From: an uncultured Acidobacteriota bacterium
GTDB taxonomy: Bacteria; Acidobacteriota; Terriglobia; Acidiferrales; UBA7541
Assembly: GCA_963841605.1 (NCBI GenBank)
Contig: CAWJDM010000016.1
Location: forward strand, 2,405-66,404
Direction: 5' to 3'
Length of the DNA stretch: 64,000 nt
The position numbers and the translations under genes were made by a program. Shown piece after piece: positions 1,820-60,001 of this stretch. Under the pieces are notes generated by a model. It did no database searches. It was not told where the DNA came from and saw only the letters and a list, made by a program, of their open reading frames with translations. Every line of letters begins with the position of its first letter. Position 1 is the first letter of the stretch.

Positions 1820-1912
1820 ATGAATCCCCCCGTCTTCCGAGCCGATGTAGGGCAATAACATCGTTCGAAGGGCGCCGTCAAGCATGGGTCTGGCAGGCCA
1901 TCAGTGTCACGG

Positions 1913-2975: not shown

Positions 2976-3000
2976 TTCGTCCGCTTTAAGAGACTCAATT

Positions 3001-27278: not shown

Positions 27279-27307
27279 GTGATTTTTCCAGCCGATTAAG
27301 CCAAAAA

Positions 27308-27385
27308 CAGATTCCTCGCTACGTCTCGCGCCCGCGAAAACCGCGGGAAAAGCAAAATCGCGCGAGGCTCCGCTCGGAATGACAG
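27308..27385. repeat. REP/MITE-like element (cagattcctcg ... ctcggaatgacag family), inverted relative to the 45157 copy
   Basis: Its reverse complement reads ctgtcattccgagcg...gcgaggaatctg, matching ctgtcattccgagggcgggtttgcccgaggaatctg at 45157-45192. Internal hairpin cccgcg-aaaac-cgcggg. Confidence 0.5.
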
Positions 27386-27545
27386 GGTCTGAGCGAGTGC
27401 CTGATGAGAAATAAACGCCTTCCGCCTTTTTTCGGAAACTACAAACCCGCGCCTTCCCCATATCTATGGTACTCCAAACGAGGGCGATCCTCTGGCGGGA
27501 TTGTGCAGAAAACCTTCGAGAGAGCCGTGGGATTGCGATTTGGCG

Positions 27546-32278: not shown

Positions 32279-33322
32279 CTAGTTGCGTGGAGTATCGCCC
32301 CCGATAAACGTTGCGTCGGTGCGCCGGGACGCGCCACCCGCCGCGCTCTGCGTAACTGCGACCGGGCCATTCGATTCAGGCACCTTGATCGGCTCGAGCA
32401 TCTTCAGAATTTCGGGCCGTCGCTGCTCGAACCACGGAGGCAGCAGAAGCTGGTGGCCAAGCTGATCGTAGGGCTCGTCGCGCGCGAAACCGCCGGGAGC
32501 CGTGGCCGCGACCTCGATCAGAATTCCGCCGGGGCACCGGCAATAGACGGAATGGAAGTAGACGCGGTCCTTGATCTCGGATGCGTCGGTGTAGCCCAAT
32601 TCCTCGTAGAGCGCCTTTTGTTCCGCCAGGGCTTCATCCGTGCCAACGTCGAGCGCGAGGTGATGTCCCGTGCCCGCGCCAAAAATCCAGCTACCTGCGG
32701 GGCGATCCGGTTCGTGAACGAGAATTACGGTGCGGCCCGGCCCGCCAGCACCCACTTCGAAGCGATGATAAGGACCTTCGGTGCCGGTCTTGCGGAAGCC
32801 GAGAGCATCGATGAAGAAGCGCTCGGTCTCGGGGACTTCCTTCACCGAGAGCACGGCGCCGTAGAATCCGCGCGTCGCGACGTCGCCGCTGATTTCTTCG
32901 GTGGTCCAGCCCTTCCGCTTGTCGGCGGAATCCTCCACCACTTCCAACTGCAAGCCGGAGGGATGGTCGAAGCGAACGAACGCCTGGCCGAAGCGTTCCT
33001 GAAGCCCCGTATTCTTGACCTTGTGACGATTCAGATGGTCGACCCAGAACTTGGCCGTGCCCTTGGGAATCGTGTAGGACGTTGCCGAAATCTGGCCGGA
33101 ACCGGGGCGCCCTTTCACTCGCTGATACGGGAACGTGGTTGCGACCGAGCCAGGCTCGGCATTCGCGTTCGCGTAATACAAGTGGTAGTGCGCGTAACGG
33201 CCGTCAAAGAGGATCGTTTGCTTGATCATCCGCTGGCCGGCTACTTTGGTGAAGAAATCGATGTCTTCCTGCGCCTGACTGGCGCAAAGGGTGATGTGAT
33301 GCAGGCCTGTGACGAGAGACAT
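32279..33322 (-). CDS. Two-domain VOC-superfamily ring-cleaving dioxygenase (glyoxalase/bleomycin-resistance fold, MhqO-like)
   Basis: ORF trimmed to Met20 (MSLVTGLHHITLCASQAQEDIDFF; [10 protein letters not shown]). Second VOC module (GFYGAVLSVKEV...FFIDALGF...GHHLALDV) and C-terminal FHSVYCRCPGGILIEVA. Confidence 0.8.
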   Translation of the reverse strand: MSLVTGLHHITLCASQAQEDIDFFTKVAGQRMIKQTILFDGRYAHYHLYYANANAEPGSVATTFPYQRVKGRPGSGQISATSYTIPKGTAKFWVDHLNRHKVKNTGLQERFGQAFVRFDHPSGLQLEVVEDSADKRKGWTTEEISGDVATRGFYGAVLSVKEVPETERFFIDALGFRKTGTEGPYHRFEVGAGGPGRTVILVHEPDRPAGSWIFGAGTGHHLALDVGTDEALAEQKALYEELGYTDASEIKDRVYFHSVYCRCPGGILIEVAATAPGGFARDEPYDQLGHQLLLPPWFEQRRPEILKMLEPIKVPESNGPVAVTQSAAGGASRRTDATFIGGDTPRN

Positions 33323-33535
33323 GGTGGTTACCTCCTCGCAACGGCGGGCATCATACGCCAACCGGGTACGCAGAGACAAGCGTACGTCGATTCAAACTGG
33401 GAATCGCTGGAAGGGACCGGCTTTACCAGAACGGATACACGTGCGGTTGCCAGCGTTGACATTTGGAAGGTGCTTGGCAGAATGGGGCTACTCAGGGGAT
33501 GTCTGGAAGCTACCTGGAGCTGGGGAGGAACGACC

Positions 33536-34342
33536 TTGATTCTATTCAGGCGTGCTGGCGCGATTGGGCTCTGTTGTTTGCTTTGTGTTTTGCCGGTGAT
33601 GGGTCAGTCTCAATCGACCGGACAACGGGCCGGGCAGATCGACGCGATGATTCCGGCCGTTTCCGTGAACTCGCAGACGGCTCAGGTGAAAGAGCCGTTA
33701 CAGTGGAACGATCTGCTGGCCACGGCGCAAAACGGGCGAGTGCGCGCCGGCCTGCTGGACGGGTCACTCTTGAGCCTGGGTTCGAATAGCCAACTGCGCA
33801 TCGTGCGGCACGACGCCGCTTCGCAACAAACTTCGCTCGAGATGGATTACGGGAAAGTGCGAAGCCAGGTGCAAAAGATCACGAAGCCGGGCGGCAAGTT
33901 CCAAATCACGACGCCGAACGCAGTCATCGGCGTGATTGGGACCGATTTCGTAACCTTGTTCGAAAACGGCACCACGACCGTCATGTGCTTCCAGGGCCAA
34001 GTGTCCGTGACGCCGAGCGGGAACGCGCAGGCGGCCCAGAATACCGGGCAAACCAACGGAAATTCGATCACGTTGGGACCCGGTCAGATGGTTGTGATTG
34101 GCCCGGTGGTTCCTCCTGGAGGATTTCAAGTTGCGAAGACGCCGACGGGCTTGATGAACGCCGGCATTCTCGATACAGGTGTGATTCAGGGCGGGAACCC
34201 CGTGGCACGCGGCGGGCACGGATTGCGTTGGGGACTCATCACGGCGGGCGTGGCGCTCGGCGTGGGCGTCGGGATCGCCGTGGGAGAGCAAAGAAGCGGT
34301 AAGACTGGCACCTGCCCGGTTGGCGTGTCTACCTGCGGGTAG
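33536..34342 (+). CDS. FecR-domain secreted protein with C-terminal TM/Gly-rich tail
   Basis: Start set at TTG 33536, which has GGAGG 7 nt upstream and gives the signal peptide MILFRRAGAIGLCCLLCVLPVMG. ATG 33482 is the alternative start. FecR motifs (GSNSQLRI...TPNAVIGVIGTDFV). Confidence 0.7.
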   Translation: MILFRRAGAIGLCCLLCVLPVMGQSQSTGQRAGQIDAMIPAVSVNSQTAQVKEPLQWNDLLATAQNGRVRAGLLDGSLLSLGSNSQLRIVRHDAASQQTSLEMDYGKVRSQVQKITKPGGKFQITTPNAVIGVIGTDFVTLFENGTTTVMCFQGQVSVTPSGNAQAAQNTGQTNGNSITLGPGQMVVIGPVVPPGGFQVAKTPTGLMNAGILDTGVIQGGNPVARGGHGLRWGLITAGVALGVGVGIAVGEQRSGKTGTCPVGVSTCG

Positions 34343-34370
34343 CTTCTGCTGATTTCAAGCGCGATACGAC

Positions 34371-36731
34371 ATGACGACGCAGAAAGAACGCCGGGCGCAA
34401 GTATCGGCGTGGCTGCGCAGAATCTGGATCCGGCAAACGGATGTCGTCCTGGCGATGCTGGTGACGCTCGCGGGACTGGCGCTCTTCGCGTTTTCTGGAA
34501 TCGGCGGTAACACGCACGCGGGCTTCGTTTTCCTCCAAAATATCGAGCAGCGCTCGCTCGACCTGCGTTTCGGCATGCGCGGCGAGCGAGCGCACGACGA
34601 CCGCATCGTCATCGTAGGCATCGACGAGAAAACTCTTCAGAAAATCGGTTCGTTTCCGCTTCCACGGGATAGTTACGCGCTGCTGATCAAACAGCTCGAT
34701 GCCGGTGGCGCGGGCGTGATCGCGTTTGACGAAACGTTTCCAACGCCCGCGAGCAATTCGGCGATCGCAGCGCTCGAGGAACTGCGGCGCGATGCGGGCA
34801 AGTCTATCTCGCCGACCCTTCTTGCAAAGATTCAGGATATCGAGGGCAGCAGCGACCAGGACGCGAGCCTGGCGGCGGCGCTCAAGAGCGGCGGCAACGT
34901 CGTGCTTGGGCACGTTTTTCTCGGCCCCGGGAATCTCGAGTCCACCGACGCGAAGGTGGCCGCGGACTACTACAACATCGTTTGGGCGAAGTCTTTTCCG
35001 CAGGTTGTGCCGGTGAAAGGCAAGGACGGACGCGCTTTCGACCTCGGAAAAGCATGGATCAATAGCGGCGGCGTGGTTGAGGCGGCCGTGGAGCCGAACA
35101 TCGTAAAGCTCGCGGAGGCTGCCGCGTCGTATGGGTTCATCAACATCCGGCCCGATCCGGATGGGACGCTGCGGCACGCGCTGCTGATCGTGCGCTACCA
35201 GGATCAGGACTTCTTTCCTTCGCTGGCTCTGCAGATCGTGCGCCAGTATGAAAACATTCCGGATCAAAATATCGCGGCGTATATCGCGGAAGACGGCCTG
35301 GAACGAATTCAAGTCGGAGCTCACACGCTGCGGCCGTCGCGCGACGGCACGGCACTGATCAACTACGCCGGACCCTACGGCACCTACGCGCAGTATTCGA
35401 TGTGGGACGTAATGAGCGGCGCGGTCCCTCCCGAGACGTTTCACAACAAGATCGTCCTGGTTGGCGGCACGGCGCTTGCGATTGGCGACCTGCGGAACAC
35501 GCCGTTCGCGGGGACGTATATGGGAGTGGAGGTTCACGCAAACATCATCGACAACGTGCTGCACAGCCAAGAAAAGGGCCGCGGATTCCTGCAGCGCGGG
35601 TTCAACGAGGAAATGATCGACATCGGCGTGATCCTGATTTTCGGAATTGCTTTCGGAGTGCTGTTTGGCCGCGTGCAACCTCTGTATTCGACCCTTTCGC
35701 TGATTGTGGCGCTCGGGGTGTTCGCATGGTTCGTCTATTACGAATTTGCGGTGCAGGGGCGATGGCTCAGTTTCGTGATTCCGGCGGGAACGCTGGTGGC
35801 GAACTACGCGGCGATCACGAGTTTCCGCATGATTTTCGAGGAACGCGAGAAACGGAGGATTCGCAAAACCTTTTCCCAGTATCTCTCGAGCGGCGTGATC
35901 TCGCTGATCGAGAAGGACCCGCAGAAATACATCCGTCCCGGCGGCGAGATGAAGGAACTCACCGTGATGTTCAGCGATATCCGCGGATTTACGACGCTGT
36001 CGGAGGGGCTGACGCCGAATGAGCTTGTGCTGCTGCTGAATGAATACCTGGGAGAAATGACCGAGGCGGTCTTTGGCAATCAGGGCACGCTCGACAAATA
36101 TATCGGCGACGCGATCATGGCGTTTTGGGGCTCGCCGTATCCGCAGGAAGATCACGCGATTCGCGGATGCAAGTGCGCGCTGCAGATGATTCGAGGACTC
36201 GAGAAGCTGAATCGCAAGTGGAAGTCGGAAGGGCGCGCGCCGCTGGCGATCGGAATCGGGCTGAACACAGGACCCGTGAATGTGGGGAACATGGGCTCGG
36301 CGAAACGGCTGGCGTGGACCGTGATGGGCGACAACGTGAATCTTGCTTCGCGGCTCGAGGGGATTACCAAGACTTATCGACTCTCTGTCGTGATCGCCGA
36401 GGGGACCTATGAGCAGGTGGCGAGCCAGTTCACTTGCCGCGAACTCGACCGGATCGCGGTGAAGGGCAAAAGCCATGCGGTGAAGATCTACGAACTGATG
36501 GGCGCGGCCGCCGAGCGGGCGAAATTCGAGCCGCTGCTGACGCCATTTGACCGGGCGATGACTGCCTATCTAAGACAGGATTGGCGCGAGGCTGCGGGGC
36601 GATTTGGCGAGCTGCTGGGCAGCTATCCCGACGATGGCCCGACGCAGGTGTTTCTGCAGCGGGCGCTGGAATTCATGGAGAACGCACCCGAGCCGGATTG
36701 GAATGGTGTGTACGTGATGAAGACGAAGTGA
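34371..36731 (+). CDS. CHASE2-sensor class III adenylate/guanylate cyclase
   Basis: N-terminal TM, then a periplasmic CHASE2-like region (IVIVGIDEKTL...PLPR), then 3 TM helices. Cyclase core (LTVMFSDIRGFTTLSE...LDKYIGDAIMAFWGSP...GLNTGPVNVGNMGS...WTVMGDNVNLASRLE). Confidence 0.9.
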   Translation: MTTQKERRAQVSAWLRRIWIRQTDVVLAMLVTLAGLALFAFSGIGGNTHAGFVFLQNIEQRSLDLRFGMRGERAHDDRIVIVGIDEKTLQKIGSFPLPRDSYALLIKQLDAGGAGVIAFDETFPTPASNSAIAALEELRRDAGKSISPTLLAKIQDIEGSSDQDASLAAALKSGGNVVLGHVFLGPGNLESTDAKVAADYYNIVWAKSFPQVVPVKGKDGRAFDLGKAWINSGGVVEAAVEPNIVKLAEAAASYGFINIRPDPDGTLRHALLIVRYQDQDFFPSLALQIVRQYENIPDQNIAAYIAEDGLERIQVGAHTLRPSRDGTALINYAGPYGTYAQYSMWDVMSGAVPPETFHNKIVLVGGTALAIGDLRNTPFAGTYMGVEVHANIIDNVLHSQEKGRGFLQRGFNEEMIDIGVILIFGIAFGVLFGRVQPLYSTLSLIVALGVFAWFVYYEFAVQGRWLSFVIPAGTLVANYAAITSFRMIFEEREKRRIRKTFSQYLSSGVISLIEKDPQKYIRPGGEMKELTVMFSDIRGFTTLSEGLTPNELVLLLNEYLGEMTEAVFGNQGTLDKYIGDAIMAFWGSPYPQEDHAIRGCKCALQMIRGLEKLNRKWKSEGRAPLAIGIGLNTGPVNVGNMGSAKRLAWTVMGDNVNLASRLEGITKTYRLSVVIAEGTYEQVASQFTCRELDRIAVKGKSHAVKIYELMGAAAERAKFEPLLTPFDRAMTAYLRQDWREAAGRFGELLGSYPDDGPTQVFLQRALEFMENAPEPDWNGVYVMKTK

Positions 36732-36786: not shown

Positions 36787-39700
36787 TCATTTCGCGGCGG
36801 ACTTCGGTGGGTCGAGCGTGACCGTGTAGACTTTGCCGTCTCGCATGTAGAGGCGTTCCGCTTCCTGATGATTGAATGGCCGCGAACCGCGCCGCCCGAA
36901 GACGGCGAGCTGGTTCCCGCTTTCGTCCGCGGCGCGATCGCGATCAACTCCCTTTGAAATTGCGAGCGCCGGTCCGTGCGTGCGATATGTCGCGATGAGC
37001 TTTGGCGTGGGGCGCGGGCTGAAGCCGTAGGAATTCGGCGAATCTTCGGGCGACATTAACTGAAGGATGCGCAGGCCGTTGCGTCCATCGGCGACGAAGG
37101 CGAACGCGCTGGCATCCACCATGCCGATTTTGGCGTCCGTGACATCGTTTAGCTTGCCATCGTCGGAAAAGAGCTGGTCGAGCTTCGGATGCTCGGGCTG
37201 CTCGACGTCGACGATCCCCACTCCCTGTTTTCCCGCGGAAACGTAGGCGTAGGTGCGCGCGACGTAGACGTTGCGCGCATCGGGGAATGGCACCAGCGCG
37301 CCCGGGACAATTCTCGGCTGATCCAGCGCGGTCACGTCGAGAACCTTCAGCCCTTGCTTATCGACGACGAAGGCGTAGCGGAACTGGACGTCGATGCCTT
37401 GCGGATCGACGAGCGTGGGGGCGCCGATTTCGGCGGTGACGCGCGGCTTCAGAGGATTATCGAGATCCACGACAACCAGGCCGCGGTCGCAAAGAATGTA
37501 GGCGTAGACGCCGGCGATCGTGATGCGGCGAGCGCCGTTCAAAATGCCGCCGGGATTAAATGCGAGCGCCCGCTTGAGAAAGTTGTTTCGCGGATCGCCG
37601 TCGAGCAGCGTGCTGACGCCGGGGCTTTTGCCTTTGACATTGGGATCGCCGACCACGACGAGGCCTTCGTATTTATCCGCCACGTAGAGGAACGCGTAGA
37701 GGGGATGGATTGGGCCTTCTTCGTTCTTCGGATTTTTCGAGCGCGCCGGATCGAGAGCGAGCGTCGACGGGCTGGCGACATCGGCCGCGTATTTCGTCTT
37801 CAGATAAAAACGCTGGCCGATGGGAGAAACGGGCGCCGTGACAACTTTTTCTGAGAAGCCCTTGTTGTCGATATTCGCGACGTCGTAGATGCGCAGGCCG
37901 CCTTTTCCGGTAGCAGCGTAGAGATACTCGCCGCGGAGCTGCACGTTGAGGACGTCGCCCTCGTGGTGGATGGCGTGCTTGAGCTGGCCCCCTTCGGCCA
38001 CGTGCTTGCGATAGTCGTCCGGATACGCGAGGCGCTGAAGATAGCTGCCGAAAATGGCTGGAGGCTCGTCGTGCTCCGCGGCGGCGACGGCGTCGAAGCC
38101 TTTTTTGCCTTCCGCCACATAAATATAGCGGCCCATGAAATTCACCAGATTCGTGCCCTGCAGCAAAACCTGCGCGAGCCACGCATTGTTGTCGTTCGCT
38201 GCAGTGAGGTGGCAATCGTCGCAGCCCTTCGTTTCTTTCGAGCGGACCGTGTGCGGGACAAACGTGCTGAACGCGGTGCCGGCAAAGCCTTCGGCTGAAA
38301 CGGTCTGCTGCATGTAGTAGAGCCACTCGCGATTCGCATTCTGCGAGCTGACGATGACGGCGCAGGTGGAGCGGGCGGGCGCGATGCGATGGCCCGTGAC
38401 GGTGCCGTCGATGCCGAGCATGAATCCGTCATCGCGGAGAACCTGGAAGGCGTAGCTGGTCCAATTGCGCGTGATCAAGCCTTCGTTGTGGAGCATGGGC
38501 TTGCGTTGATTCGCCATCATGGAGAGATGGCAGCCCCAGCAGTTGGTGGTCCATGAAGTGTGGCAGGCGTAGCAGGTCATTTTGCTATTGGGATGCGCGA
38601 GCTGAGATGAATCGGCGGGGACGCTGCCCCAAGTCTTGCCGTCGAGCTGAACCGTTTTCGCCCAGCGCGATTTTTCGCTGTAGTGCGGATTGCCGGGCGT
38701 GATCGTGTCAAGAGTTTGGACAACTTCCCACTCGAGATTGGGTTCGACCATCGACCGCTGGTAAAGCTTGCCGTCCCGCCATTCGAAGCGGCGCTCGCGC
38801 CACGGTGTGCGCAGAGTCTCAAGATGCGTGCCGCCATTGGGAGCGGCGGGTCCCGAGGTGATCAGCGTGGCGTGTTGGTCGATCGTGCCGTGGCAATCGA
38901 TGCAATCGAGTTCGATGGCCGCGCGCGGCTCGGCGTAGAGGTTGCCGTTGCCGTGATTATCCTGCTCGAAATGGCAATCGATGCACTGCATGCCTTTTTC
39001 GAGGTGAATGTCTTTCAGGTGGACGGCCTTAGCGAATTTCCGCGGATCATCGGGCGAGACGATTTTGTCGTCGGCGTCGAGCAGATTGCCCTTGCGATCG
39101 CGCTTGAAGACGGCGCGGAAGATCCATCCGTGGCTGTGGAAATCGGCGAACTGATCGGTTTTGAGCTTCTTATTGAATTCCGGCGTGCCAACTTGCTCGA
39201 GAAACTTCGGATCGGCCCAAAGACCCTTCGCGGCAGCCGGCTCCGGATTTCGCAGCGCAACCTGATATCGCTCCTCATCCGTCGGATTTTTCTGGTTCTT
39301 CGGATACATCAGCTCGCCGTCCGCCTCGTTGTCCCACCAGGTGTAGCCGAAGTAGGTCGTTTCCATGTTCGTGCCGGGATGGACATGGCAGACCATGCAC
39401 TGGCTCGAAGGAATCGCTCGCGTGAACGAGTGGCGAATCGGATGGCCCGACTCATTTTGGGAGATCGTGGGATCGGAGGTGACGGTATATCCCATGTTTC
39501 CGTACTTGGCGTACGGGCCGGAGTGGTCGGACGAGCGGTCGTTTGCGTAGACGACGTGGCACGCCGTGCAGCCGCTGGCACGATAATCGCCCGCTTCATC
39601 GTTGGTTCCGGGCAGGTACAGGAGCGGATCGAGGAGGCGCGTTTTTTGCAGGCCGAGGAAAACAGGATCGGTGCGCAGCTCGGTGCCGAAGCCGCGATCG

Positions 39701-40587
39701 CTCAACTTGTCGTCCGGGTGGCCGGATTCTTCCTCGCGATTCGGATTGCCGATCTCGCCCTTCTTTTCGCCGCCGCGCTCGAAGACGCGCAGGACGTTGC
39801 CGGGCTGCGAAATTTCCCACCGTTCGAGCGGGGCGATTTCCGGGAGGATGCCCTTGGCGCGCGTTTCCTCCGGCGTAGGAGGCGGCATCGTGAACACGGC
39901 CTGCGGCGTGCCGTCGGCCGAATAGCTCTCGCCGAAATGCGAATCCTTTAGAGGATACGCACCGTTGTTATAGAGGGCGGCGCCCCAGAGCAGGGAGCCC
40001 GTGGTCATCAGGCTGGTTTGCACGCGGCGGACTTCGCTCACGTGGCAGCCAGATTGGCCGCAGGTTTGCGGAGCGACGCGCAGATCGCCCGGATTGATGA
40101 ATCGAATGTAGTCATAGTTCTCGTGCAGCCATTCGGTGTAGGGGCGGACGGGATTCGCGGAGCTGCGCGCCCATTCGGGGATGGTGGACTTGGGATGCGC
40201 GCGATTTTTGGCGTCTTCGTACTGGGCGGAGCCCATCTGCGCGCCGGGAAGAACGTGAACGCTCGAATCTCCGCCGTGGCAATCGATGCAGGCGAGGCGG
40301 ACGGTGCCTGTCGGGTGCATCGTGGGCTGGTCCGTAGTCGTGTGGCAGCTCACGCAGCCCGCATTTTTTCGGTCGACATCCGCCTGGGATTGGCCCTCGG
40401 GGCTGGCCTGCAGCGCGTTTCTCTGCTGCGGCGGCTGTTGCGACGGCGGGGAATCTTCCGTTTGCGCACGCGATGCGGAATCTGCCACGAGCGCGAGACA
40501 CACGGCGGCGAGCAGCATCAGCAGCGGAAGAAACACACGCCGCGTCCGCCTGCTCGATCCGCGCATCGATTGGGCCAGAAAATCCAT
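36787..40587 (-). CDS. Secreted multihaem c-type cytochrome (9 CxxCH + 1 CX4CH) fused to a C-terminal LVIVD-repeat beta-propeller
   Basis: Signal peptide ([23 protein letters not shown]). Haem motifs CVSCH, CIDCH, CGQSGCH, CTACH, CMVCH, CIDCH, CIDCH, CYACH, CWGCH, CDDCH are spread over about 750 aa. The C-terminal ~400 aa carry LVIVD-type repeats ([68 protein letters not shown]). Confidence 0.85.
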
Positions 40588-40599
40588 TCCGTCTCCCGC

Positions 40600-43065
40600 T
40601 CAGAACTGAAAGCGAATGTCGGTAAAGAGCGAAAACAGCGTCTTGCCGCCGTAGATATCCCGGAAGCCTTGCCCCGGAGTCAATCCAGCAGCGCCAGCCG
40701 TGATCGAAAAGTTTTCCGTGAGCGGCGGGCGGTAGCGAACGCCGACGCTGTAGTCGTACCCGATGGGGCGGTGAATGTTACCTTGAAACAGCAGCAGCTG
40801 CAGCGGCTCCGTGCGCATGAATTGCAGATAGTTTACGTTCACGAACGCTTGCAGCTTGGGAGTGAGATCGAGATTCGTCCCAGCGTTGATCAAAAAGATG
40901 CCGGGATTCACAAAATTCGACTGGCCTTCAAATTTGCTCGAGCGCAGGTCGGGCAGGATGCTATCGGGCGGCGTGAGCAGCACACCCGAGCCGGTGAGGC
41001 GAATGCCTTCGCGATCCCAGAGGCTGAAAATGCCGCCCGCGAATTCCGGGGAATCGTCGATGGAATCGAAGCCGCGGGCGCGACCGCTGCGGGGATCGGC
41101 GGAGCCGGACGCGTACATTCCCGAAATCTTGAAGCGCGCCCAGTCTTTGTCGATGGAAAGCTCGGCGGCGGCGAACTGCGCGTTGATCGTGACGGGACGG
41201 TTGGCGATCGGATTGTAGCTGTCGTTGCCGAGCACCTGATAGAACGCGTTCGTGATGTTCAGCCGCCCGATGTGGCCGTCGCCGGTCCAGCCGAGATAGA
41301 CGGCGTGGATCGCATGCGCACGAATCATGCCGTCGGAAACAACGCCTCCGATCGGCGCGGGGCGCACCAGGAAGCCGTTGTCGTCGTAGTGGATGGTGGC
41401 TTGATCGATGTTGTAGTGCACGCTGAATTGCGCGGTGTAACCGGGAACGAGAAAATCCTGGCGGTAGACATTCGCGAGGATCAGTTGCTGATTGCGCAGC
41501 GCCATCGAATTCAGGTCGCTATTGGTATTTTTCTCGAGGAAATTGAAGTAGGCGAGATTGTACTGCCAGCGATTATTCGAATAGTTCCCAAAGAATCGCA
41601 CTCCCGGCTGCTCGTCGACGAAAAGAAACCCGCGAAAATCGCTGTTGAACTCCTGAATTCCCGCGCGCACGGAGACGAAATCGAAATTGGGGCTGAGGTC
41701 GCGCAGTTTCAACTCGCCGAACGCTTCCTGCAGCCCGATATGCGAATCGAGGCGCGTGGTGCCTTTCCGCACGTCGATATTGACGATGCCCTGCTCCTGC
41801 ACGTCGAGGTAGTTGAGGCTGACCACTGGCGTCACGCGAATCCGCCAATCGATTGGGCGAAACGACGCGTCGCCGTGAAACAGGTCGAACGAGAAGAGGA
41901 AAGTCTGATCCAGGAATAGCTGCTCGCCCTTGCCGAAAAATCCGGGCTCGCCGGGGCGTGCGGTGCTGACGTCGCTCGGCGTCGGCAGGCGGCGGCCGTC
42001 GAGGAATGTGTCGCTCACAGCGGTGAGATCGAAGAAAGTCTGCTGGCCGAAGACAGGGTAATCGCCCTTCAGCTTGTTACGATCGAACGGGTCGAAGCGA
42101 TGGCTTTTCACGTAGGGCCGCTCGTTGCCAACTCCGTAGCGGTCCCAATTCGGCATAGGAACGGTCCAGCGATCCGGCTCGGGGACGAAAACTTTGTTGG
42201 CGGGCGGAAGCGGTGGTGGCGTCGTCGCGGTTTCGGTCGAAGGCGGCTGCCCATTTTTAAGCCGCTGCACCACGCCGGGATATGGCGGAGCGGCCTGCGA
42301 CGGCGGTGCGGTTGAAGGCGGCGCCGCGGAAGCTTTCACCTCCGGCATTTCCGGGACGTGTTGCAGCGGCGGAGTGACGGTCGAAATTGGCGCGAGCTTG
42401 ATGTCGCGATCGAGCACCTGGCCGAGGCCCACACTGATGTCGGATTCCGTGTAGGAAGTGTAGCCGTCGTGCGTAATCTTCAGCTCGTAATGCCCCGGCG
42501 CCAGATCGAGCACGCGAAAGACGCCGTCGGCTGTTCCGGTTTGCTGCCGCGTCTCGCCGGTATCGATGTTGCGCAGCGAAATCGCTGCGCCCACCACCGC
42601 CTGCCCGCTTGGGTCGCGAATCGTTCCTTCGATGGCGCCCGTCCGGATCGGCTTCGATTGAGGCAGGCGCTCCTGCTGTGGATTGGACTGTGGGCGAGCC
42701 GGAGATCGGGCTGGCGAGTCTCCGGCGGCTAGAGCGATCGGCATCAGCGCTGTTCCGGTCACATCGGACCGACGGGGCGCGTGAAGGGAGGCGAGGCTTG
42801 CGCGTTGCCGTTTGCGCCCGGGAGCCCGCCGCGTGGCCGCCCGCCGCACCCGGCGAAGGTGGCTGCGGCTGCGCCTATGTCCGCTCATGCGCGCGTGAGT
42901 CGCATGTATCCGATGGTGCGCCTTTGTGTGCACGCTGGTTCGGCCGGCTACACGCGCGCGCATCGCGAAAGGTCCGGTGCAGGGAAACGCCAGCAATAGC
43001 AGAGAAAGGTATACCGCGACCCGGAGTGATGCTTGTTTGCGGAGGATGTGGGGTGCGGGGAACAT
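40600..43065 (-). CDS. Predicted outer-membrane beta-barrel protein with N-terminal carboxypeptidase-regulatory-like domain and Pro-rich linker
   Basis: ORF 40600..43143 trimmed to Met27 (MFPAPHILRKQASLRVAVYLSLLLLAFPCTGPFA, signal-like); the start is uncertain. GAIEGTIRDPSGQAVVGAAISLRN...DGVFRVLDLAPGHYEL (CarboxypepD_reg). About 540-aa C-terminal region with alternating-hydrophobic strands and a terminal ...FTDIRFQF (OMP C-terminal Phe signature). 12 nt upstream of the multihaem gene. Confidence 0.7.
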   Translation of the reverse strand: MFPAPHILRKQASLRVAVYLSLLLLAFPCTGPFAMRARVAGRTSVHTKAHHRIHATHARMSGHRRSRSHLRRVRRAATRRAPGRKRQRASLASLHAPRRSDVTGTALMPIALAAGDSPARSPARPQSNPQQERLPQSKPIRTGAIEGTIRDPSGQAVVGAAISLRNIDTGETRQQTGTADGVFRVLDLAPGHYELKITHDGYTSYTESDISVGLGQVLDRDIKLAPISTVTPPLQHVPEMPEVKASAAPPSTAPPSQAAPPYPGVVQRLKNGQPPSTETATTPPPLPPANKVFVPEPDRWTVPMPNWDRYGVGNERPYVKSHRFDPFDRNKLKGDYPVFGQQTFFDLTAVSDTFLDGRRLPTPSDVSTARPGEPGFFGKGEQLFLDQTFLFSFDLFHGDASFRPIDWRIRVTPVVSLNYLDVQEQGIVNIDVRKGTTRLDSHIGLQEAFGELKLRDLSPNFDFVSVRAGIQEFNSDFRGFLFVDEQPGVRFFGNYSNNRWQYNLAYFNFLEKNTNSDLNSMALRNQQLILANVYRQDFLVPGYTAQFSVHYNIDQATIHYDDNGFLVRPAPIGGVVSDGMIRAHAIHAVYLGWTGDGHIGRLNITNAFYQVLGNDSYNPIANRPVTINAQFAAAELSIDKDWARFKISGMYASGSADPRSGRARGFDSIDDSPEFAGGIFSLWDREGIRLTGSGVLLTPPDSILPDLRSSKFEGQSNFVNPGIFLINAGTNLDLTPKLQAFVNVNYLQFMRTEPLQLLLFQGNIHRPIGYDYSVGVRYRPPLTENFSITAGAAGLTPGQGFRDIYGGKTLFSLFTDIRFQF

Positions 43066-43295
43066 CCCCTCGTGATCTCGCTTGGCCCGCGTCAGTTGCG
43101 AGTCGGGTAGTGCTTGGTTATCACAGTTCCCAAGGTCGTTCAAGCGCTAATCGGCCCGGAGAGTGTCCCGTTGCCCACAACGTTTCACGCGATAGCTGCA
43201 AGCTGCAGTCGTGCCGCCCGGAGAACCGAATCGGTGGAGCAATCGGCTGCAAGCGTAGTTTGAGAACCATCCCGGCTATGGTAAGAATAGGAGCC

Positions 43296-45407: not shown

Positions 45408-46814
45408 TTAGCCTTCGCGGAGCTTGTGGCTGGCCAGATTGCCGAGGCCGTCGTAGGCGGCGTACTTGTACATTTCCGAGAGCGTGGGGAAATTGAAGAC
45501 AAAGGCGATGAAGAGATCGATCGTGCCGCCTGCCTCAAGGACTGCCATTCCCGTGTGAATCAGCTCGGTGGCTTGTTCGCCGATGATATGAACGCCGAGC
45601 AGCTTGCGATCGTCGCGCCGGAAGAGCAGCTTCAGCAGCCCCGAGGTGTCGCCGACCATGGCGCCCCGCACGTTGTTTGCATAATGCGCGCGGCCAACTA
45701 CGTAGTCGATGTGATGCTCCCGGCAGGATTCTTCGCTTTCGCCGACAGCCGAAATTTCCGGAATCGTGTAAACGCCCATCGGAAGCTGCGAAGCGAGCCG
45801 CTTTTTGTAATCGAATCCGAAAGCGTGGCAGACGGCGACGCGGCCCTGCTCCATCGAAGTTGATGCGAGGGCGGGAAAGCCGATGACGTCGCCGGCGGCG
45901 TAGATGTGCGGGATCGAGGTCTGATACGACTCGTTGACGTCGATGTAGCCTCGCTGATTCAGCGTGAGCCCGATTTTTTCGAGGGCGAGGCCTTCGACGG
46001 TGCCGCGCCGGCCCGCGGCGAAGAGAACCGCGTCGGCATCGAGAATCTTTCCGGATTTGAGCTGCAAGCGCACGGCGCTCGAGGCGTGCTCGGTCTTGGC
46101 GACGCGCTCCTCGAGATAGCACTGAACGCCGAGCCCAGTCAGGCGCTCGCGCAAAAGCTTGCTCAATTCAGCATCGAGAAATGGTAGGAGACGATCGCGC
46201 CCATCGACCAGCGAGACTTTCACTCCGAGCGCCGTGAAGATCGAGGCGTACTCGCAGCCGATCACGCCGCCGCCCACCACGATCAGGCTTTGCGGCAGGC
46301 GGTCCATTTGCAAGATCGAGTCGGAATCGAAGATGGACTTGTCGTCGAACGGAATTTCGGCTGGGCGATGCGGGCGCGATCCGGTGGCGATCAGGATGAC
46401 GTCGCCCCGCAGCCGCTCCGGCGATTTCTTGGGAGACGCAACAGCGACCGTGTGCGGATCCTCGAAAGAGCCCGTGCCCCAGAAGACGTCGACGTGATGC
46501 GCCGCGAGATTCTTTTTGATTTCCTGGCGCTCGATTTCGACGAGAACGTTCTTGCGGTGCGTAAAACCCTCGACCGTGAGCCCTTCGCGCAAGGAATAGT
46601 CGATGCCGTATAGCCCGCGCTGCTTCAAGCCGGAAAAATAGAGCGCGGATTCGCGCAGGATTTTGCTGGGAATCGTCCCGGAATTAACGCACGCGCCGCC
46701 GGGCTCGGCCTCCGACTCGACGAGCGCGACACGTCTTCCGAAATACGCCGCTTGCGCCGCCGCCTTCTCTCCGGCCGGGCCGGAACCAATCACTACCAGA
46801 TCATAGGATTGCAC
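45408..46814 (-). CDS. sthA: Soluble Si-specific NAD(P)+ transhydrogenase
   Basis: YDLVVIGSGPAGEKAA FAD fold. GGACVNSGTIPSK has a single Cys, with Thr replacing the second redox Cys, as in SthA/UdhA and unlike lipoamide dehydrogenase CxxxxC. Second dinucleotide fold (LIVVGGGVIGCEYA). C-terminal dimerisation domain. Confidence 0.8.
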   Translation of the reverse strand: MQSYDLVVIGSGPAGEKAAAQAAYFGRRVALVESEAEPGGACVNSGTIPSKILRESALYFSGLKQRGLYGIDYSLREGLTVEGFTHRKNVLVEIERQEIKKNLAAHHVDVFWGTGSFEDPHTVAVASPKKSPERLRGDVILIATGSRPHRPAEIPFDDKSIFDSDSILQMDRLPQSLIVVGGGVIGCEYASIFTALGVKVSLVDGRDRLLPFLDAELSKLLRERLTGLGVQCYLEERVAKTEHASSAVRLQLKSGKILDADAVLFAAGRRGTVEGLALEKIGLTLNQRGYIDVNESYQTSIPHIYAAGDVIGFPALASTSMEQGRVAVCHAFGFDYKKRLASQLPMGVYTIPEISAVGESEESCREHHIDYVVGRAHYANNVRGAMVGDTSGLLKLLFRRDDRKLLGVHIIGEQATELIHTGMAVLEAGGTIDLFIAFVFNFPTLSEMYKYAAYDGLGNLASHKLREG

Positions 46815-46844: not shown

Positions 46845-49544
<2,700 letters not shown>

Positions 49545-50951: not shown

Positions 50952-51218
50952 CTTCGGTTCAGCTGGTCGGAGCGCATCGCCACCCACGCGAGCGGCGACA
51001 AACCGCCTGAAATGTGGCTGTCTCGACGCTTATAGTATCGGCTTCCGTCGCAATGTCAACGACGAGGTCGGCCGGGTACAAGACATGTTTCCATATTCAG
51101 TTGGGCTGTGGACGGATTCGCGAGTCTTGCTATACACTCTTGCACGACTCGCCGTCTTGGCTGGTCTCGCAGTCGACTTGACACGGAATCGCCACAGACA
51201 TTCTGGGGAGAATACAGG

Positions 51219-52934
51219 TTGATCGTTCAGGAACTGAGAGCGGTCCAGTCCCAGTTTGGATTCCTGCCCGCCGATCAGCTTCAGGCGCTGGCCAAGAAGA
51301 TTAACGTCCCGATCACGCGCCTCCACCAGGTTGCCAGCTTCTTCCCGCATTTTCGTCTCACGCCTCCGCCGAAAGCGGACGTGCGCATTTGCCGCGACAT
51401 GTCGTGCCATTTGCGCGGCGGGGATCGCGTGCGGATGAACCTTGAGGAGCGATTCAAGGGCGCGAGCGAGCAGGAAGTGACGATTCGCGGCGTCTCGTGC
51501 CTGGGGCAGTGCGATCATGCGGTCGCGGTTTCGATCAACGACCGGGTATTCGCTCCGGCGGATGAGGCGCGCGTCGAGCAGATTATTCGCGACGTGCTGC
51601 TGCAGGGGGAATTGCCGCAAGCCGCCCACCGCGAGGCCGGCGTCGAGTGCGCGTCGAATCCATACGCGGGCGGCGAGCGATATGGCGCCGTGCGGCGGCT
51701 GGTGGAATCGCGCGGATGGAACGCGGCGCTCGAAGCGCTGAAGTCGGCTGGGCTGCGCGGGCTGGGCGGCGCGGGTTTTCCGACGGAAATGAAGTGGCAG
51801 CTAGTCCGGCAGCAGCCCGGAAACGAAAAATACATCGTGTGCAACGCGGATGAGAGCGAGCCGGGCACATTCAAGGACCGATTCATTCTGACCCACCTTC
51901 CTTTCCTCGTGATCGAAGGAATGATCATCGCGGGGCTCATTACCGGCGCGCGCAAGGGGATTCTCTACATCCGCCACGAATACGAGGCGCAGGAACACCT
52001 TTGCGAACAGGAGATTCGCCGCTGCTACGAGGCGGGCCTGCTGGGATCGAAGATTCTTGGCACGGATTTGGCGTTCGATCTCGAGGTTTTCGTCAGCCCC
52101 GGCGGATACATCTGCGGGGAAGAGAGCGCGCTGCTTGAGGCGATCGAAGGGAAGCGGGCGGAGCCGCGCAACAAGCCTCCGTTTCCGGGGCAGCAGGGCC
52201 TTTGGAACAAGCCGACCGTAATCAATAACGTCGAAACGTTTGCGCACGTCCCGCAGATTCTGGTGCGCGGCGTGGAGTGGTACAAGGCGCAGGGCGTCGG
52301 CGGAACGGCGGGACTGAAATTTGTTGGCGTGAGCGGCGATATCGAAAAGCCGGGCGTGTACGAGCTGCCAATGGGAACGCCGATGTCGGAGCTCATTTTC
52401 AAAAGAGCAGGAGGCGTGCGCGGCGGCAAAAAGTTGAAGGCATTTGCGCCTTCAGGGCCGTCGTCCGGCTATCTTCCGGCTTCGATGGTCGACGTGCATC
52501 TCGATTTCAAGTCGCTTGCGGATGCGGGCTCGATGCTGGGCTCGGGCGCTGTGGTGGTCTGCGCCGAGGGAACCTGCATGCTGGATATGGCACTGAGCGC
52601 GACGCAATTCTTTCGCAACGAATCCTGCGGCAAGTGCGTGCCGTGCCGCGTTGGCTCGCAAAAGATGGTCGATATTCTGGCGGGGTGGTCGCAGGGGCGA
52701 GGGGCGGAAGAAGACCTTGCGCTCGTGCAGGAGCTCTCGCAGTCGATGGTGCTGACTTCGATTTGCGGGCTCGGGCAAGTGGTGCCCGCGCCGATCGGCT
52801 CCGTGCTGAAATATTTTCGCGAGGAAGTTGAGGCGCATATCACGCGGCACGAATGTCCGTCGGGCATCTGTTTTTCTGATGCGCCCGCCCGCAGCGCGCC
52901 CGCAGCGGCCGCGGCTGTTCCGAGGTTGCTATGA
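51219..52934 (+). CDS. NuoE-NuoF fusion-type NAD(P)H dehydrogenase (FMN, 2Fe-2S, 4Fe-4S) subunit, HoxF/FdsB-like
   Basis: Start set at TTG 51219 (GGGGAG 8 nt upstream) within ORF 51108..52934. NuoE-like 2Fe-2S (CRDMSCHLRGG...CLGQCDHAVAV). NuoF FMN/NADH site (GLRGLGGAGFPTEMKW). N3 cluster (ESCGKCVPCRVG). Confidence 0.85.
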   Translation: MIVQELRAVQSQFGFLPADQLQALAKKINVPITRLHQVASFFPHFRLTPPPKADVRICRDMSCHLRGGDRVRMNLEERFKGASEQEVTIRGVSCLGQCDHAVAVSINDRVFAPADEARVEQIIRDVLLQGELPQAAHREAGVECASNPYAGGERYGAVRRLVESRGWNAALEALKSAGLRGLGGAGFPTEMKWQLVRQQPGNEKYIVCNADESEPGTFKDRFILTHLPFLVIEGMIIAGLITGARKGILYIRHEYEAQEHLCEQEIRRCYEAGLLGSKILGTDLAFDLEVFVSPGGYICGEESALLEAIEGKRAEPRNKPPFPGQQGLWNKPTVINNVETFAHVPQILVRGVEWYKAQGVGGTAGLKFVGVSGDIEKPGVYELPMGTPMSELIFKRAGGVRGGKKLKAFAPSGPSSGYLPASMVDVHLDFKSLADAGSMLGSGAVVVCAEGTCMLDMALSATQFFRNESCGKCVPCRVGSQKMVDILAGWSQGRGAEEDLALVQELSQSMVLTSICGLGQVVPAPIGSVLKYFREEVEAHITRHECPSGICFSDAPARSAPAAAAAVPRLL

Positions 52935-56103: not shown

Positions 56104-57538
56104 GTGCCGCGAGAGAAGCGCACCACCAAAACCGTCGCGAAGCGCATCGACCTGAACTATTTCAAGCGGCCGAGCCCGTGGCGGCGGTGGCGCTTCGCGC
56201 TGTCGGTCGCGCTGCCGTGCCTGGCGGTAGCGTGGCTCGCGGCGTATGGCGTGACACGCAACAATCACGCGTACAGCAGCGGCAAGATGTCGCCCGCGCA
56301 CGCGGTGCTCACGCGGCAGTGCAATGCGTGCCATTTCTCGCGCGCGGGCTCCTTCCGCGCGACTGCGACCGATCAGGCGTTGCCTTGCGTGCCACGACGG
56401 GCCGATTCACCACGCGGGTCAGGTGTTCACGCCGAGCTGCGCATCGTGCCACGTCGAGCATCGAGGACGAATGCGCCTTGCGGCGACAGCCGATCAGAGC
56501 TGCACGCAATGCCACGCGAATTTGCGCACGAACGGCAAGGCAACGTCCTACGTGACCCACGTTACGGCATTCACTTCCGGGGGGCATCCGGAGTTCGCGC
56601 CTTTGCGCGCCGGGTTCCGCGATCCCGGAACGATCAAGCTCAACCATGCCATTCACCTGAAGGCCAGCCTCCTGGGACCGAATGGCACCCGAGTGCAAAT
56701 GACGTGCGATGACTGCCATCGCGCGAACGCCGCGGATCAATCCTGGAGATTCGGCGCGGCGCCGGCTTCGCAATCGCAGTCGCCTTCGTCGATGGCAGCA
56801 AACGCGACGGCGGGCGCGATGATGCCGGTTTCGGCGCCGCGCATGTTTCCGCCGTCCTATTCGCCGGCGCGCGCGTACATGCAGCCGATTTCCTATGCGA
56901 GGCACTGCATCGGCTGCCATCCGCTGCTTTTCGACAAGCGCTTCACCGATAGCGTGCCGCACGACACGCCGGAAGTGATTCACGCGTTTCTGGTGAAGCG
57001 ATACACGGAGTACATCGCGACGCATCCAGCGGAATTGCGGGAGACGAAGTCCACGATGGCGTTGCCGGCGAGACCAGTGCCGATTTCGCCGCGCATCTAT
57101 ACGCCGCCGGAATGGGTCAACACGCGCGTGGCCGAGGCGGAGAATCTGCTGTGGCGCAAGACCTGTAAAGAGTGTCATGCGCTGTCATCCCTGCCGAGCG
57201 CCCAGCCCGCTCCGATGATGCTGCCAGGGGCGTTGCCCAAAGTCGCGAAGTCGAATATCCCCGTGCGCTGGTTCCCGGACGCCGAATTCGATCACCAGGC
57301 GCACCGCGCGTGGACTTGCACCACCTGCCACCCGCGCGCGACGACGAGCCAGGAGACGGCCGATATTCTTGTGCCGGGTGAGAAGACGTGCGAGCAGTGC
57401 CATCACCCGGGCGCGGATGCAGCCGAAGCGCGCTGCTTCGAGTGTCACGCCTATCACGACTGGAGCCGCGAAAAGCCGGTGAAAGGCACGCCGCACTTTT
57501 CGTCGTGGATGCAAATTGCGCAAAGGCCGGCATCTTAG
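56104..57538 (+). pseudogene. Membrane-anchored decahaem c-type cytochrome, interrupted by a +1 frameshift (extra T at 56380/56381); could equally be a sequencing error
   Basis: Frame of ORF 56104..56712 gives an N-terminal TM anchor (WRFALSVALPCLAVAWLAAYG) and CNACH, then loses sense. Frame of ORF 56324..57538 carries CLACH, CASCH, CTQCH, CDDCH, CIGCH, CKECH, CTTCH, CEQCH, CFECH. Deleting one T of the TT at 56380-56381 joins them as ...ATDQACLACHDGPIHH... (477 aa). Confidence 0.7.
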
Positions 57539-59991: not shown

Positions 59992-60001
59992 CGTCCGCTC
60001 C

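Follow-up and report, generated by a model that had tools for sequence, protein, structure and literature searches.

A conserved barrel and decahaem-propeller cytochrome pair of Acidobacteriota, a candidate distal module of an envelope electron-transfer chain

Why would a bacterium keep a gene for an outer-membrane β-barrel protein (OMP) directly in front of a gene for a large exported protein that joins ten haem c sites to a β-propeller? The question is raised by a stretch of 64,000 nucleotides (hereafter the window) on contig CAWJDM010000016.1 of GenBank assembly GCA_963841605.1, from the metagenome-assembled genome of an uncultured Ca. Acidiferrales bacterium of the Acidobacteriota. An initial annotation, made from the letters alone, had singled out the two genes and proposed that they encode an undescribed surface redox module, possibly one that works like the known porin-cytochrome conduits. 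Its description of the locus was accurate in all details: an OMP and a cytochrome of 1266 amino acids, a gap of 12 nucleotides between their genes, ten haem sites and an LVIVD propeller.

Our work demonstrates that this module is real, very widespread, strongly conserved and unannotated. The genes that accompany it provide good support for a general role in electron transfer in the cell envelope. Within that role we tentatively favour, at slightly less than an even chance, the reading that the pair is the distal module of a dedicated envelope electron-transfer chain, with the cytochrome acting as an outer-sphere oxidoreductase and the barrel as its channel or anchor. The literature we searched contains no description of this barrel/decahaem-propeller family.

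A gene pair kept together across phyla

The two open reading frames (ORFs) have thousands of homologs and therefore are not chance ORFs: more than 7800 homologs exist for the cytochrome at the 90% clustering level, and a homology search found 3276 for the OMP. The top 120 cytochrome homologs, 74 to 100% identical and mostly from Ca. Acidiferrales/Acidoferrales, are all named 'hypothetical protein'. A profile-free exhaustive search with the cytochrome returned 17712 representative matches (1221 with E < 1e-30), with full-length relatives down to about 40% identity. With one genome counted per species, relatives were found in at least 583 genome stretches. Those listed, 80 in number, all belong to metagenome-assembled genomes (MAGs), mostly of Acidobacteriota (Terriglobia, Bryobacterales, Vicinamibacterales, Pyrinomonadaceae/Blastocatellia and Thermoanaerobaculia), while a few bear the labels Binatia, Nitrospirae, Fervidibacter, Planctomycetia or Polyangiaceae. 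A search seeded with a relative of 40% identity also reached KSB1, Wallbacteria and Nitrospirota.

Of the 80 genome loci searched by tblastn, 78 have the OMP gene directly upstream of the cytochrome gene and in the same orientation; the other two have no upstream DNA. Independent ORF calling and clustering found the genes adjacent and co-directional, with a median gap of 15 nucleotides, in all 79 loci in which both are complete. The pair is retained in KSB1 and Wallbacteria, where the barrel is 48 to 50% identical and the protein lacks the CarboxypepD_reg domain found at the N terminus of the OMP in the window. It is also retained in the most distant clade, whose cytochromes are 42 to 45% identical and whose upstream barrel homologs have 27 to 31% identity (E 1e-42 to 1e-63); in these the N-terminal domain is absent or an AMIN domain stands in its place. 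Hence the synteny that the initial annotation expected in other genomes holds in every complete locus, the most distant clade included.

Could the pair be no more than an ordinary porin standing beside a periplasmic cytochrome by chance, with no functional link? The synteny effectively refutes this. The same adjacency, orientation and near-zero gap recur in all 79 complete loci and in several phyla, including the clade with the most diverged barrels, and the pair stays intact while the genes around it are reshuffled between lineages. Moreover, the barrel, which carries invariant polar motifs, is conserved to a far greater degree than general porins.

Within the gene cluster described below, conservation is highest in the cytochrome. 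Identity to the Wallbacteria locus is 59% for the cytochrome, 58% for an iron-sulfur (Fe-S) protein, 48% for the barrel, 45% for a cytochrome b, 36% for an HbpS-like protein and 32% for a c554-like cytochrome. The top rank of the cytochrome points to purifying selection and suggests a constrained complex or enzyme and not a fast-evolving surface wire.

The cytochrome and its barrel partner

Exactly 12 nucleotides separate the OMP stop codon from the cytochrome start, and they contain a Shine-Dalgarno-like GGGAGA motif. The cytochrome begins with a Sec-type signal peptide (Table 1). No conserved lipobox was found in the 254 full-length relatives screened, and judged by these sequences the family is not lipidated. 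A Tat signal ('TRRVFL') was considered and dismissed, as homologs do not keep the motif.

Nine CxxCH motifs (residues 78, 100, 340, 397, 535, 562, 672, 683 and 789) and one CGQSGCH (Cx4CH, residue 176) form the ten haem sites. All ten are invariant or nearly so in alignments of 12 and of 106 sequences that reach down to about 41% identity, and site 3 switches between CxxCH and Cx4CH among orthologs. Besides the ten proximal His residues, the 106-sequence alignment contains 8 invariant and 5 near-invariant His, and the motif scan found neither CxxCK nor a long-spacer haem motif in the cytochrome. The 13 additional conserved His make all-bis-His ligation possible, and the ten haems are probably all of this type; ten bis-His haems would in turn point to outer-sphere electron hand-over and not to a catalytic haem. 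Long blocks outside the haem motifs are conserved as well, among them YNNG...K...GE.Y and KTRL.DP...GTND..GDYR.SGC.

AlphaFold2 (AF2), run on residues 67 to 1266 with 106 diverse sequences, models the protein as one compact body of about 1200 residues (predicted local distance difference test, pLDDT, 88.4; predicted template modelling score 0.90). The haem domain is chiefly helical, with a disordered loop at residues 270 to 304 and a β-rich insertion at about 686 to 776 between haems 9 and 10. The protein has 127 residues per haem, or 0.79 haem motifs per 100 amino acids. Its C-terminal part matches Pfam LVIVD (PF08309) in 3 stretches, with 65.9 bits where the cutoff is 20.2 (E 2e-18), and is modelled as about seven four-stranded blades with a pLDDT of 92 to 98. 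A Foldseek search of the PDB with the whole model retrieved generic propellers alone, among them the YVTN propeller 1l0q from the S-layer of an archaeon and other seven-bladed ones, as well as AztD, WD40 proteins and cd1 nitrite reductase. Neither alignment contains an invariant His, Cys or Met in the propeller, which favours a binding or docking domain over a cofactor site, and a binding or docking domain is what it looks like.

The OMP gene required a decision on its start. The longest ORF (40600..43143) opens with TTG. We chose the internal ATG at 43065, as the initial annotation had rightly done, because the 'MFPAPHILRK' and hydrophobic stretch that follow it fit the conserved signal peptide of the homologs ('M[LP]PAS.ILRK'); by this comparison it is the true start, giving 821 amino acids. 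We rejected the start in the NCBI record of the identical protein (P0121, 714 amino acids, 'carboxypeptidase-like regulatory domain-containing protein'), which lies at an internal Met and leaves the signal peptide out. The conserved N terminus favours 821 amino acids, and the NCBI call is probably truncated. The basic linker of about 70 residues behind the signal peptide has other sequences and lengths in some homologs and is missing in others.

The CarboxypepD_reg domain is presumably periplasmic. A conserved motif precedes the barrel and is retained in Wallbacteria, KSB1 and the most distant clade; the confidence of AF2 is low there. The OMP ends in DIRFQF, and its terminal Phe is kept as Phe or Tyr in distant homologs. 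It has no CxxCH and a single Cys, inside the signal peptide, so the barrel protein has no haem site of its own.

We also rejected a TonB-dependent receptor identity for the OMP, as it has no Plug or TonB_dep_Rec match and shares the CarboxypepD_reg domain alone with such receptors; on this point, the absence of a TonB plug from the barrel, the initial annotation is supported. The window does encode a genuine TonB-dependent-type receptor with CarboxypepD_reg and OMP_b-brl_4 domains (23682..27461, minus strand, 1259 amino acids, E 8.7e-169), and its likeness to the OMP is limited to the N-terminal domain (31% identity over 88 residues).

What kind of barrel is it? Pfam leaves the barrel of the OMP unmatched at E ≤ 0.1, and six diverse barrel domains gave zero matches at E ≤ 10, including to Alginate_exp (PF13372) and OprD (PF03573). 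A single-sequence PDB search with the OMP found nothing significant, and a profile search found the CarboxypepD_reg domain alone. The fold class therefore comes from an AF2 model built from 71 sequences (65 to 96% identical). In Foldseek, the best PDB match of this model is AlgE (18 strands, E 1e-12, template modelling score, TM, 0.55 to 0.60 by target), followed by OccK/OprD (18 strands) and then 16-strand porins. The AlgE and OccK/OprD matches span E values of 1e-12 to 1e-8 and TM scores of 0.5 to 0.6 by target, with root mean square deviations of 8 to 9 Angstrom, for a model of low confidence. The top 50 matches contain OmpF-type barrels but no MtrB, LptD or other 22- to 26-strand barrel and no TonB-dependent transporter. 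By this model the fold class would be AlgE/OprD-like.

AlgE, OccK and OprD are the closest structural matches of the barrel model; their sequence identity to the barrel is about 10% and their gene context is different, and the OMP has additional N-terminal periplasmic modules and the conserved pre-barrel motif. An insert of about 70 residues, conserved across phyla, would by topology be extracellular loop 7. It may fold into the lumen, much as OprD and AlgE have a long loop able to line or plug theirs. We hypothesize that the pre-barrel motif and this loop are candidates for a plug, a specificity filter or a contact to the propeller. A barrel of 18 strands would have a C-alpha diameter of about 30 Angstrom, narrower once side chains and inward loops are counted.

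These dimensions bear on the mechanism proposed by the initial annotation, a true trans-outer-membrane porin-cytochrome conduit. In such a conduit part of the cytochrome, or of a neighbouring multihaem one, would sit inside the barrel, or the cytochrome would be secreted onto the conserved extracellular loop of the barrel, and the acceptors would be insoluble oxides of Fe or Mn, particles of organic matter or partner cells. Strict adjacency of barrel and multihaem genes is a hallmark of Mtr/Pcc systems; in MtrCAB, PioAB and MtoAB (Shewanella, Rhodopseudomonas, Sideroxydans), as here, the barrel gene is tightly linked to a gene for a ten-haem c-type cytochrome, and envelope electron transfer is the likely role in both. 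Other periplasmic multihaem cytochromes of the cluster could serve as MtrA or OmaB, the long conserved putative extracellular loop is a possible docking site, and LVIVD/YVTN propellers are typical of cell-surface proteins, as the Pfam description and the 1l0q S-layer match indicate. However, an MtrB-type barrel has 26 strands and sheaths a slim MtrA of about 35 kDa, whereas about 18 strands are modelled here beside a compact propeller cytochrome of about 130 to 135 kDa, which is not a rod. A barrel of about 30 Angstrom cannot enclose a globular protein of about 135 kDa and hence, by this model, is not an Mtr-type sheath.

The family tests also speak against a conduit. No Pfam or NCBIfam model spans the barrel or the haem domain, and the initial annotation, which saw no resemblance by eye, is supported in that neither protein belongs to the Mtr or Pcc families: no match to MtrB/PioB, DmsE/MtrA or MtrC lies above threshold. 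TIGR03508 (decahem_SO; MtrA/DmsE, rods of about 300 to 350 amino acids) scores 14.5 bits against a cutoff of 192.2 (E 0.018) with the 1266-amino-acid cytochrome, and Mtrc-MtrF_II-IV_dom scores 13.9 bits against a cutoff of 30 (E 0.04). The surface decahaem lipoprotein of the MtrC/OmcA family has no counterpart in the decahaem cytochrome, which has no conserved lipobox for surface anchoring, and an outer lipoprotein cytochrome, which Pcc requires, is not present either. In addition, the conservation of the cytochrome is unusually high compared with surface cytochromes of extracellular electron transfer (EET). Like Mtr, Pio, Pcc and Ext, the module combines a barrel with multihaem cytochromes, but it fails the family tests of these systems, and we regard the conduit mechanism as unlikely.

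The Geobacter Pcc and Ext systems (OmaB-OmbB-OmcB; ExtHIJKL, then ExtMNOPQS) likewise set a porin-like protein, with fewer strands than MtrB, beside multihaem cytochromes, and the Ext cluster encodes a b-type cytochrome and an Fe-S protein too, as found here. NF040943 (ExtM) matches cytochrome residues 525 to 797 over positions 258 to 505 of its 599 (E 6.8e-20), at 70.9 bits where the cutoff is 800. This suggests distant homology to the 12-haem ExtM at the level of the domain only, and ExtM has no propeller.

A comparison from the same phylum and habitats is provided by two clusters of peat Acidobacteriota. EET1 combines an MtrB-like porin, recognised by fold search, with a separate six-bladed NHL/DUF5128 propeller and a cytochrome, and EET2 is an Mtr-like cluster (Fiorito et al. 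2026 preprint, 10.64898/2026.05.27.727921). EET1 shares with our pair the combination of a propeller, an outer-membrane barrel and multihaem cytochromes, and papers on D. ferrophilus and Ca. Tenderia also discuss propeller-associated multihaem systems; both facts are in favour of a conduit. In our pair, by contrast, a seven-bladed LVIVD propeller forms one protein with the cytochrome, and the modelled barrel resembles AlgE/OprD. Neither EET1 nor EET2 is this fused LVIVD protein. The candidates in that study were prioritised by a high haem density, with a median of 1.13 motifs for every 100 residues compared with 0.79 here (10.64898/2026.05.27.727921).

Another possibility is that the cytochrome is a periplasmic catalytic oxidoreductase served by a substrate-specific uptake channel. 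The barrel would import a small soluble substrate, for example an oxyanion of N, S, Se or a metal, or else an organic oxidant, and the active site would be one of the haems or the haem-propeller interface. The conservation is enzyme-like, with 74 to 83% identity among the relatives listed and 42 to 59% identity in other phyla such as KSB1 and Wallbacteria, the haem density is typical for enzymatic multihaem cytochromes, and the long conserved non-haem blocks and the likeness of the barrel to the substrate-specific OccK/OprD and AlgE channels point in the same direction. The related ExtM of Geobacter lies in a cluster implicated in selenite/tellurite reduction, beside the porin-like ExtI. There is also weak local similarity to the haem packing of octahaem nitrite reductase and NrfA; however, the profile search of the PDB matched NrfB and octahaem nitrite reductase over short haem-motif stretches alone (E 7e-4 to 1e-2), and a single-sequence search found nothing significant. 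The conserved His suffice for ten bis-His haems, and the haem motifs include no CxxCK or long-spacer type, the kinds that go with a non-His or open axial position in catalytic multihaem families (NrfA, ONR, OTR, HAO, MccA).

The cd1 nitrite reductase also unites a haem c domain with a propeller, and its match in Foldseek (1gjq, E 4.8e-6) covers the propeller fold alone. It has one haem c and an eight-bladed propeller that holds haem d1 via His, whereas our protein has ten c haems and a propeller without the invariant His, Cys or Met that a metal or a d1-type cofactor would need. For this reason a cd1-type haem-propeller enzyme was dismissed, and a catalytic role in general appears quite unlikely to us.

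Electron-transfer genes around the pair

The genes within 10 kb of the pair were compared in 86 loci, and the features of the window are collected in Table 1.

Table 1. Features of the barrel/decahaem-propeller locus and its neighbours (positions in the window; counts are loci, out of 86, with the gene near the pair)
Feature	Position	Strand	Basis and remarks
Decahaem/LVIVD-propeller cytochrome gene, 1266 amino acids	36787..40587	-	ORF and translation, motif scan, Pfam
Cytochrome signal peptide, residues 1-41, Sec-type	40465..40587	-	Sequence and alignment of N termini
Haem domain, cytochrome residues ~67-836	38080..40389	-	Motif scan; AF2 pLDDT mostly 85-95
Propeller (~7-bladed, LVIVD/YVTN-type) and tail, cytochrome residues ~837-1266	36790..38079	-	Pfam and AF2 strand pattern
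OMP gene, 821 amino acids	40600..43065	-	ORF and translation; stop codon 40600-40602
OMP signal peptide, residues 1-34, MFPAPHILRKQASLRVAVYLSLLLLAFPCTGPFA	42964..43065	-	Fits 'M[LP]PAS.ILRK + hydrophobic' of homologs; cleavage site inferred
Basic His/Arg/Lys/Ser-rich low-complexity linker, OMP residues 35-107	42745..42963	-	Sequence and comparison of N termini
CarboxypepD_reg domain, OMP residues 145-224	42394..42633	-	Pfam E 3.1e-18; AF2 pLDDT ~80-89
Pro-rich linker, OMP residues 225-291	42193..42393	-	Read from sequence; AF2 pLDDT <40
Pre-barrel segment, OMP residues ~292-341, PEPDRW...W.RY...PY...DPF.RN.LKGDYP.FGQ.TF	42043..42192	-	Invariant columns in 71 homologs
β-Barrel domain, OMP residues ~342-821, ~18 strands	40603..42042	-	AF2 secondary structure
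Conserved ~70-residue insert, strands 13/14, OMP residues 653-721, GFD.I.D..FAGG.FS...GIRL...LP.LRSSK..G..NFVNPG	40903..41109	-	Invariant columns; AF2 pLDDT <50
FecR-domain gene	32453..34342	+	Linked with CHASE2 cyclase; 12 loci
CHASE2 sensor/adenylate-guanylate cyclase	34371..36731	+	Pfam; convergent with cytochrome gene; 14 loci
HbpS-like/GlcG (DUF336) tandem-domain lipoprotein, 537 amino acids	43296..44909	+	Pfam HbpS-like, 2 stretches; divergent; 54 loci
Soluble (Si-specific) NAD(P)+ transhydrogenase SthA	45408..46814	-	NCBIfam equivalog, 586.6 bits against cutoff 465; 17 loci
GH63-like protein	46845..49544	-	Window neighbour
c554-like pentahaem cytochrome, 478 amino acids	49551..50987	-	Pfam and haem motifs; 30 loci
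NuoE-NuoF fusion (FMN/NADH-binding module)	51108..52934	+	Pfam; NCBIfam nuoF_fam E 4e-137; 19 loci
Cytoplasmic Fe-S protein: NuoG/HoxU-like N terminus, three cNMP-binding stretches, Fer4_11 four-cluster domain	52931..55102	+	41 loci (cNMP/Fer4)
Membrane dihaem-b-type protein, 295 amino acids	55158..56045	+	Weak cytochrome b561 Pfam match; 34 loci
Membrane-anchored ~10-haem c7-like cytochrome, two frames	56104..57538	+	1-nucleotide insertion near 56376-56381; 37 loci

The HbpS-like gene is the third most conserved neighbour, and in two loci (L086 and L087) it lies upstream of the OMP gene on the same strand. Its product has a lipoprotein-type N terminus, as read from the sequence, and its nearest solved relative is EfgA. 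The c554-like gene is directly downstream of the decahaem cytochrome gene in distant lineages.

The Fe-S protein has no export signal. Its core of cyclic-nucleotide-binding (cNMP) and Fer4 domains is 34 to 58% identical in KSB1, Wallbacteria and the distant clade, and 2 to 3 cNMP-binding domains are present in every lineage examined; in the window NuoG-like parts are fused to this core, beside the NuoE-NuoF fusion (NuoEF). No CCG/HdrD-type domain was detected in it. In distant lineages its gene is translationally coupled to that of the membrane protein, which has two H-x13-H pairs (H81/H95 and H274/H288) conserved in five homologs. Two such His pairs are the pattern of dihaem-b transmembrane electron wires, and this protein is probably one.

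The c7-like cytochrome is split in the window: one ORF (56104..56712) holds the membrane anchor and the first CNACH, and a second (56324..57538) holds the nine other CxxCH. Compared with an intact homolog of 457 amino acids, the gene has one extra T ('gcgTTgcc') right before CLACHDGP; this T may have arisen in the assembly, or the gene is truly frameshifted.

The genes stand in a single co-directional array in the loci of KSB1, of Wallbacteria and of the distant clade, with partly overlapping stop and start codons and in the order (HbpS-like), barrel, cytochrome, multihaem cytochrome, cNMP/Fer4 protein, membrane protein and multihaem cytochrome. The cluster is a plausible full path from cytoplasmic NAD(P)H to the periplasm. 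Given so many electron-transfer proteins around the pair, conserved along with it, 'undescribed envelope redox module' is a fair description, which supports the initial annotation in this respect.

The upstream part of this path sets the module apart from the better-known conduits. In Mtr the input is a CymA-type quinol oxidase, and the core of the Geobacter module is a quinol-linked, bc-type Rieske/cytochrome b unit; the input here appears to be an NAD(P)H, Fe-S and cytochrome b module, built around the cNMP/Fer4 protein and the dihaem-b protein. The layout is closer to TmcABCD/Hmc or to wires of the NOX/MsrQ type than to the quinol-dependent CymA and Cbc. As in the upstream module of our cluster, these systems combine a cytoplasmic Fe-S or flavin donor with a dihaem b protein that has two His pairs and with a periplasmic multihaem or other redox partner, and no quinone site is obvious in this passage of electrons through the inner membrane. 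The Fe-S subunit here differs by its 2 to 3 cNMP-binding domains and, in the window, by the NuoG-like parts fused to it.

A likeness to Tmc/Hmc also means that the same hardware could run inward and take up electrons from Fe(II), reduced humics or a shuttle for cytoplasmic acceptors. A multihaem cytochrome, a membrane cytochrome b and a cytoplasmic Fe-S protein together make up the Tmc/Hmc layout, which runs inward, and neither the Pfam and NCBIfam assignments nor the His pairs of the neighbours fix the polarity. Cyc2, a redox-dedicated outer-membrane barrel of similar size, lets Fe(II) reach a haem; this single haem is on the barrel polypeptide and inside the barrel, whereas the partner here is a separate decahaem protein. 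However, the reduction of NAD+ via a NuoEF-like module requires a very low-potential donor or an input of energy, the linked SthA is better suited to supplying NADH than to producing it, and the conserved neighbours in the loci examined include no cytoplasmic terminal reductase. We consider the inward direction improbable.

The cNMP-binding domains and the nearby cyclase suggest that electron flow is gated by a cyclic nucleotide. The CHASE2 cyclase might make the nucleotide that the Fe-S protein senses, and the two would then be linked in function. The literature searched contains no description of such gating. A more specific version of the export reading would be a quinone-independent, cyclic-nucleotide-gated route from a SthA/NuoEF-like input through the cNMP Fe-S protein, a NOX/MsrQ-like dihaem-b protein and the multihaem cytochromes to the decahaem-propeller protein docked under an AlgE-like channel, with the CHASE2 cyclase as the switch. 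In this full form the proposal is doubtful.

Some further features of the loci deserve mention. In two of them, from distant lineages (L088, 20457..21546; L089, 18227..21444), the cluster is followed by proteins in which an FHA domain is joined to a flavoprotein module (FAD_binding_6/NAD_binding_1, or Pyr_redox_2 and Fer2). These proteins may stand in for the NuoEF-like input of NAD(P)H and bring in regulation that depends on phospho-threonine. In the window, a formate dehydrogenase-N-type operon (57606..63169, minus strand) adjoins the cluster. It encodes an FdnG-like molybdoenzyme with a Tat signal, an FdnH-like Fe-S subunit (59101..59991) and FdhE (57606..58493). The FdnG-like gene is divided into two ORFs (62582..63169 and 60002..62560) by an in-frame TGA at 62582-62584 (context ARV-U-HGP), which is likely a selenocysteine codon.

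Scans of the two-gene operon for promoters and terminators and against Rfam were uninformative. An ORF of 715 amino acids (34329..36476, minus strand) was rejected as a third gene of the operon: it has no Pfam match and overlaps the well-supported gene of the CHASE2 cyclase in antisense. Spurious long ORFs such as this one are typical of the genome, with its 61% G+C, and several similar ones recur across the loci as conserved 'antisense ORF' clusters.

Role of the pair and meaning for Acidobacteriota

We return to the reading that we tentatively favour, in which the pair is the outer end of an envelope electron-transfer chain. Its observed basis consists of the gene structure, the domains, the haem sites, the synteny, the composition of the cluster and the fold class of the propeller; from these, and from the barrel model of low confidence, we infer the fold class of the barrel, the order of the carriers, the direction of flow, the localisation, the acceptor and the contact between barrel and propeller. 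Reducing equivalents would come from cytoplasmic NAD(P)H, in the window via SthA and the NuoEF-like module, and pass to the cytoplasmic Fe-S protein with its cNMP-binding domains. The dihaem-b protein would then carry the electrons across the inner membrane to the membrane-anchored and soluble multihaem cytochromes, and the exported decahaem protein would be the terminus of the chain. The barrel would admit a soluble or polymeric acceptor or shuttle to the cytochrome, candidates being metal chelates and quinone-bearing organic acids, and/or would anchor the cytochrome at the outer membrane via the pre-barrel motif or the conserved loop.

Several points weigh against this reading or limit it. 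In locus L085 the barrel gene is not directly upstream of the cytochrome gene. The upstream gene there (1..3033) encodes a large surface protein with immunoglobulin-like repeats and a C-terminal hydrophobic anchor. The envelope of this organism may be of another kind, or its barrel gene may be located elsewhere in the genome. The linkage of NuoEF and SthA, from which the proposed NAD(P)H input derives, is confined to the Terriglobia subset of the loci. The ligation and exposure of the haems are predictions, as is the pore size, and the barrel model of about 18 long strands has a mean pLDDT of 57, which is low; with the 70-residue insert unmodelled, the true number of strands could be 20. Porin-like proteins of Geobacter with about 20 predicted strands are reportedly accepted in porin-cytochrome conduits, so the number of strands alone is no bar to a conduit. 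In sulfate reducers, electrons run inward through the analogous Tmc/Hmc complexes; the outward flow in our reading is tentative. Finally, the literature searched contains no experiment, localisation or expression data on the family.

Acidobacteriota are among the most abundant bacteria of soil and peat. The way in which they get rid of electrons in anoxic microsites is a question tied to carbon turnover and the suppression of methane. The module occurs in at least 583 genome stretches, of which those listed are nearly all from Acidobacteriota MAGs, and in thousands of metagenome clusters, and it is conserved more strongly than the known EET cytochromes. Nevertheless it is easily missed by screens, being unannotated and having a haem-motif density below that of the candidates of a recent screen. 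If it is a route of electron export or uptake, the barrel, the decahaem-propeller cytochrome, the HbpS-like lipoprotein, the cytochrome b and the cNMP/Fe-S protein form a testable gene set.

Such a route would also widen the porin-cytochrome concept to a design with a small barrel and a fused propeller, in which electrons might enter without passing through quinones and under the control of cyclic nucleotides; the input pathway may indeed be the more novel side of the system. With the gated export route outlined above, abundant soil Acidobacteriota could pass reducing power from fermentation to organic matter, dissolved or particulate, or to metal chelates that enter the channel or touch it.

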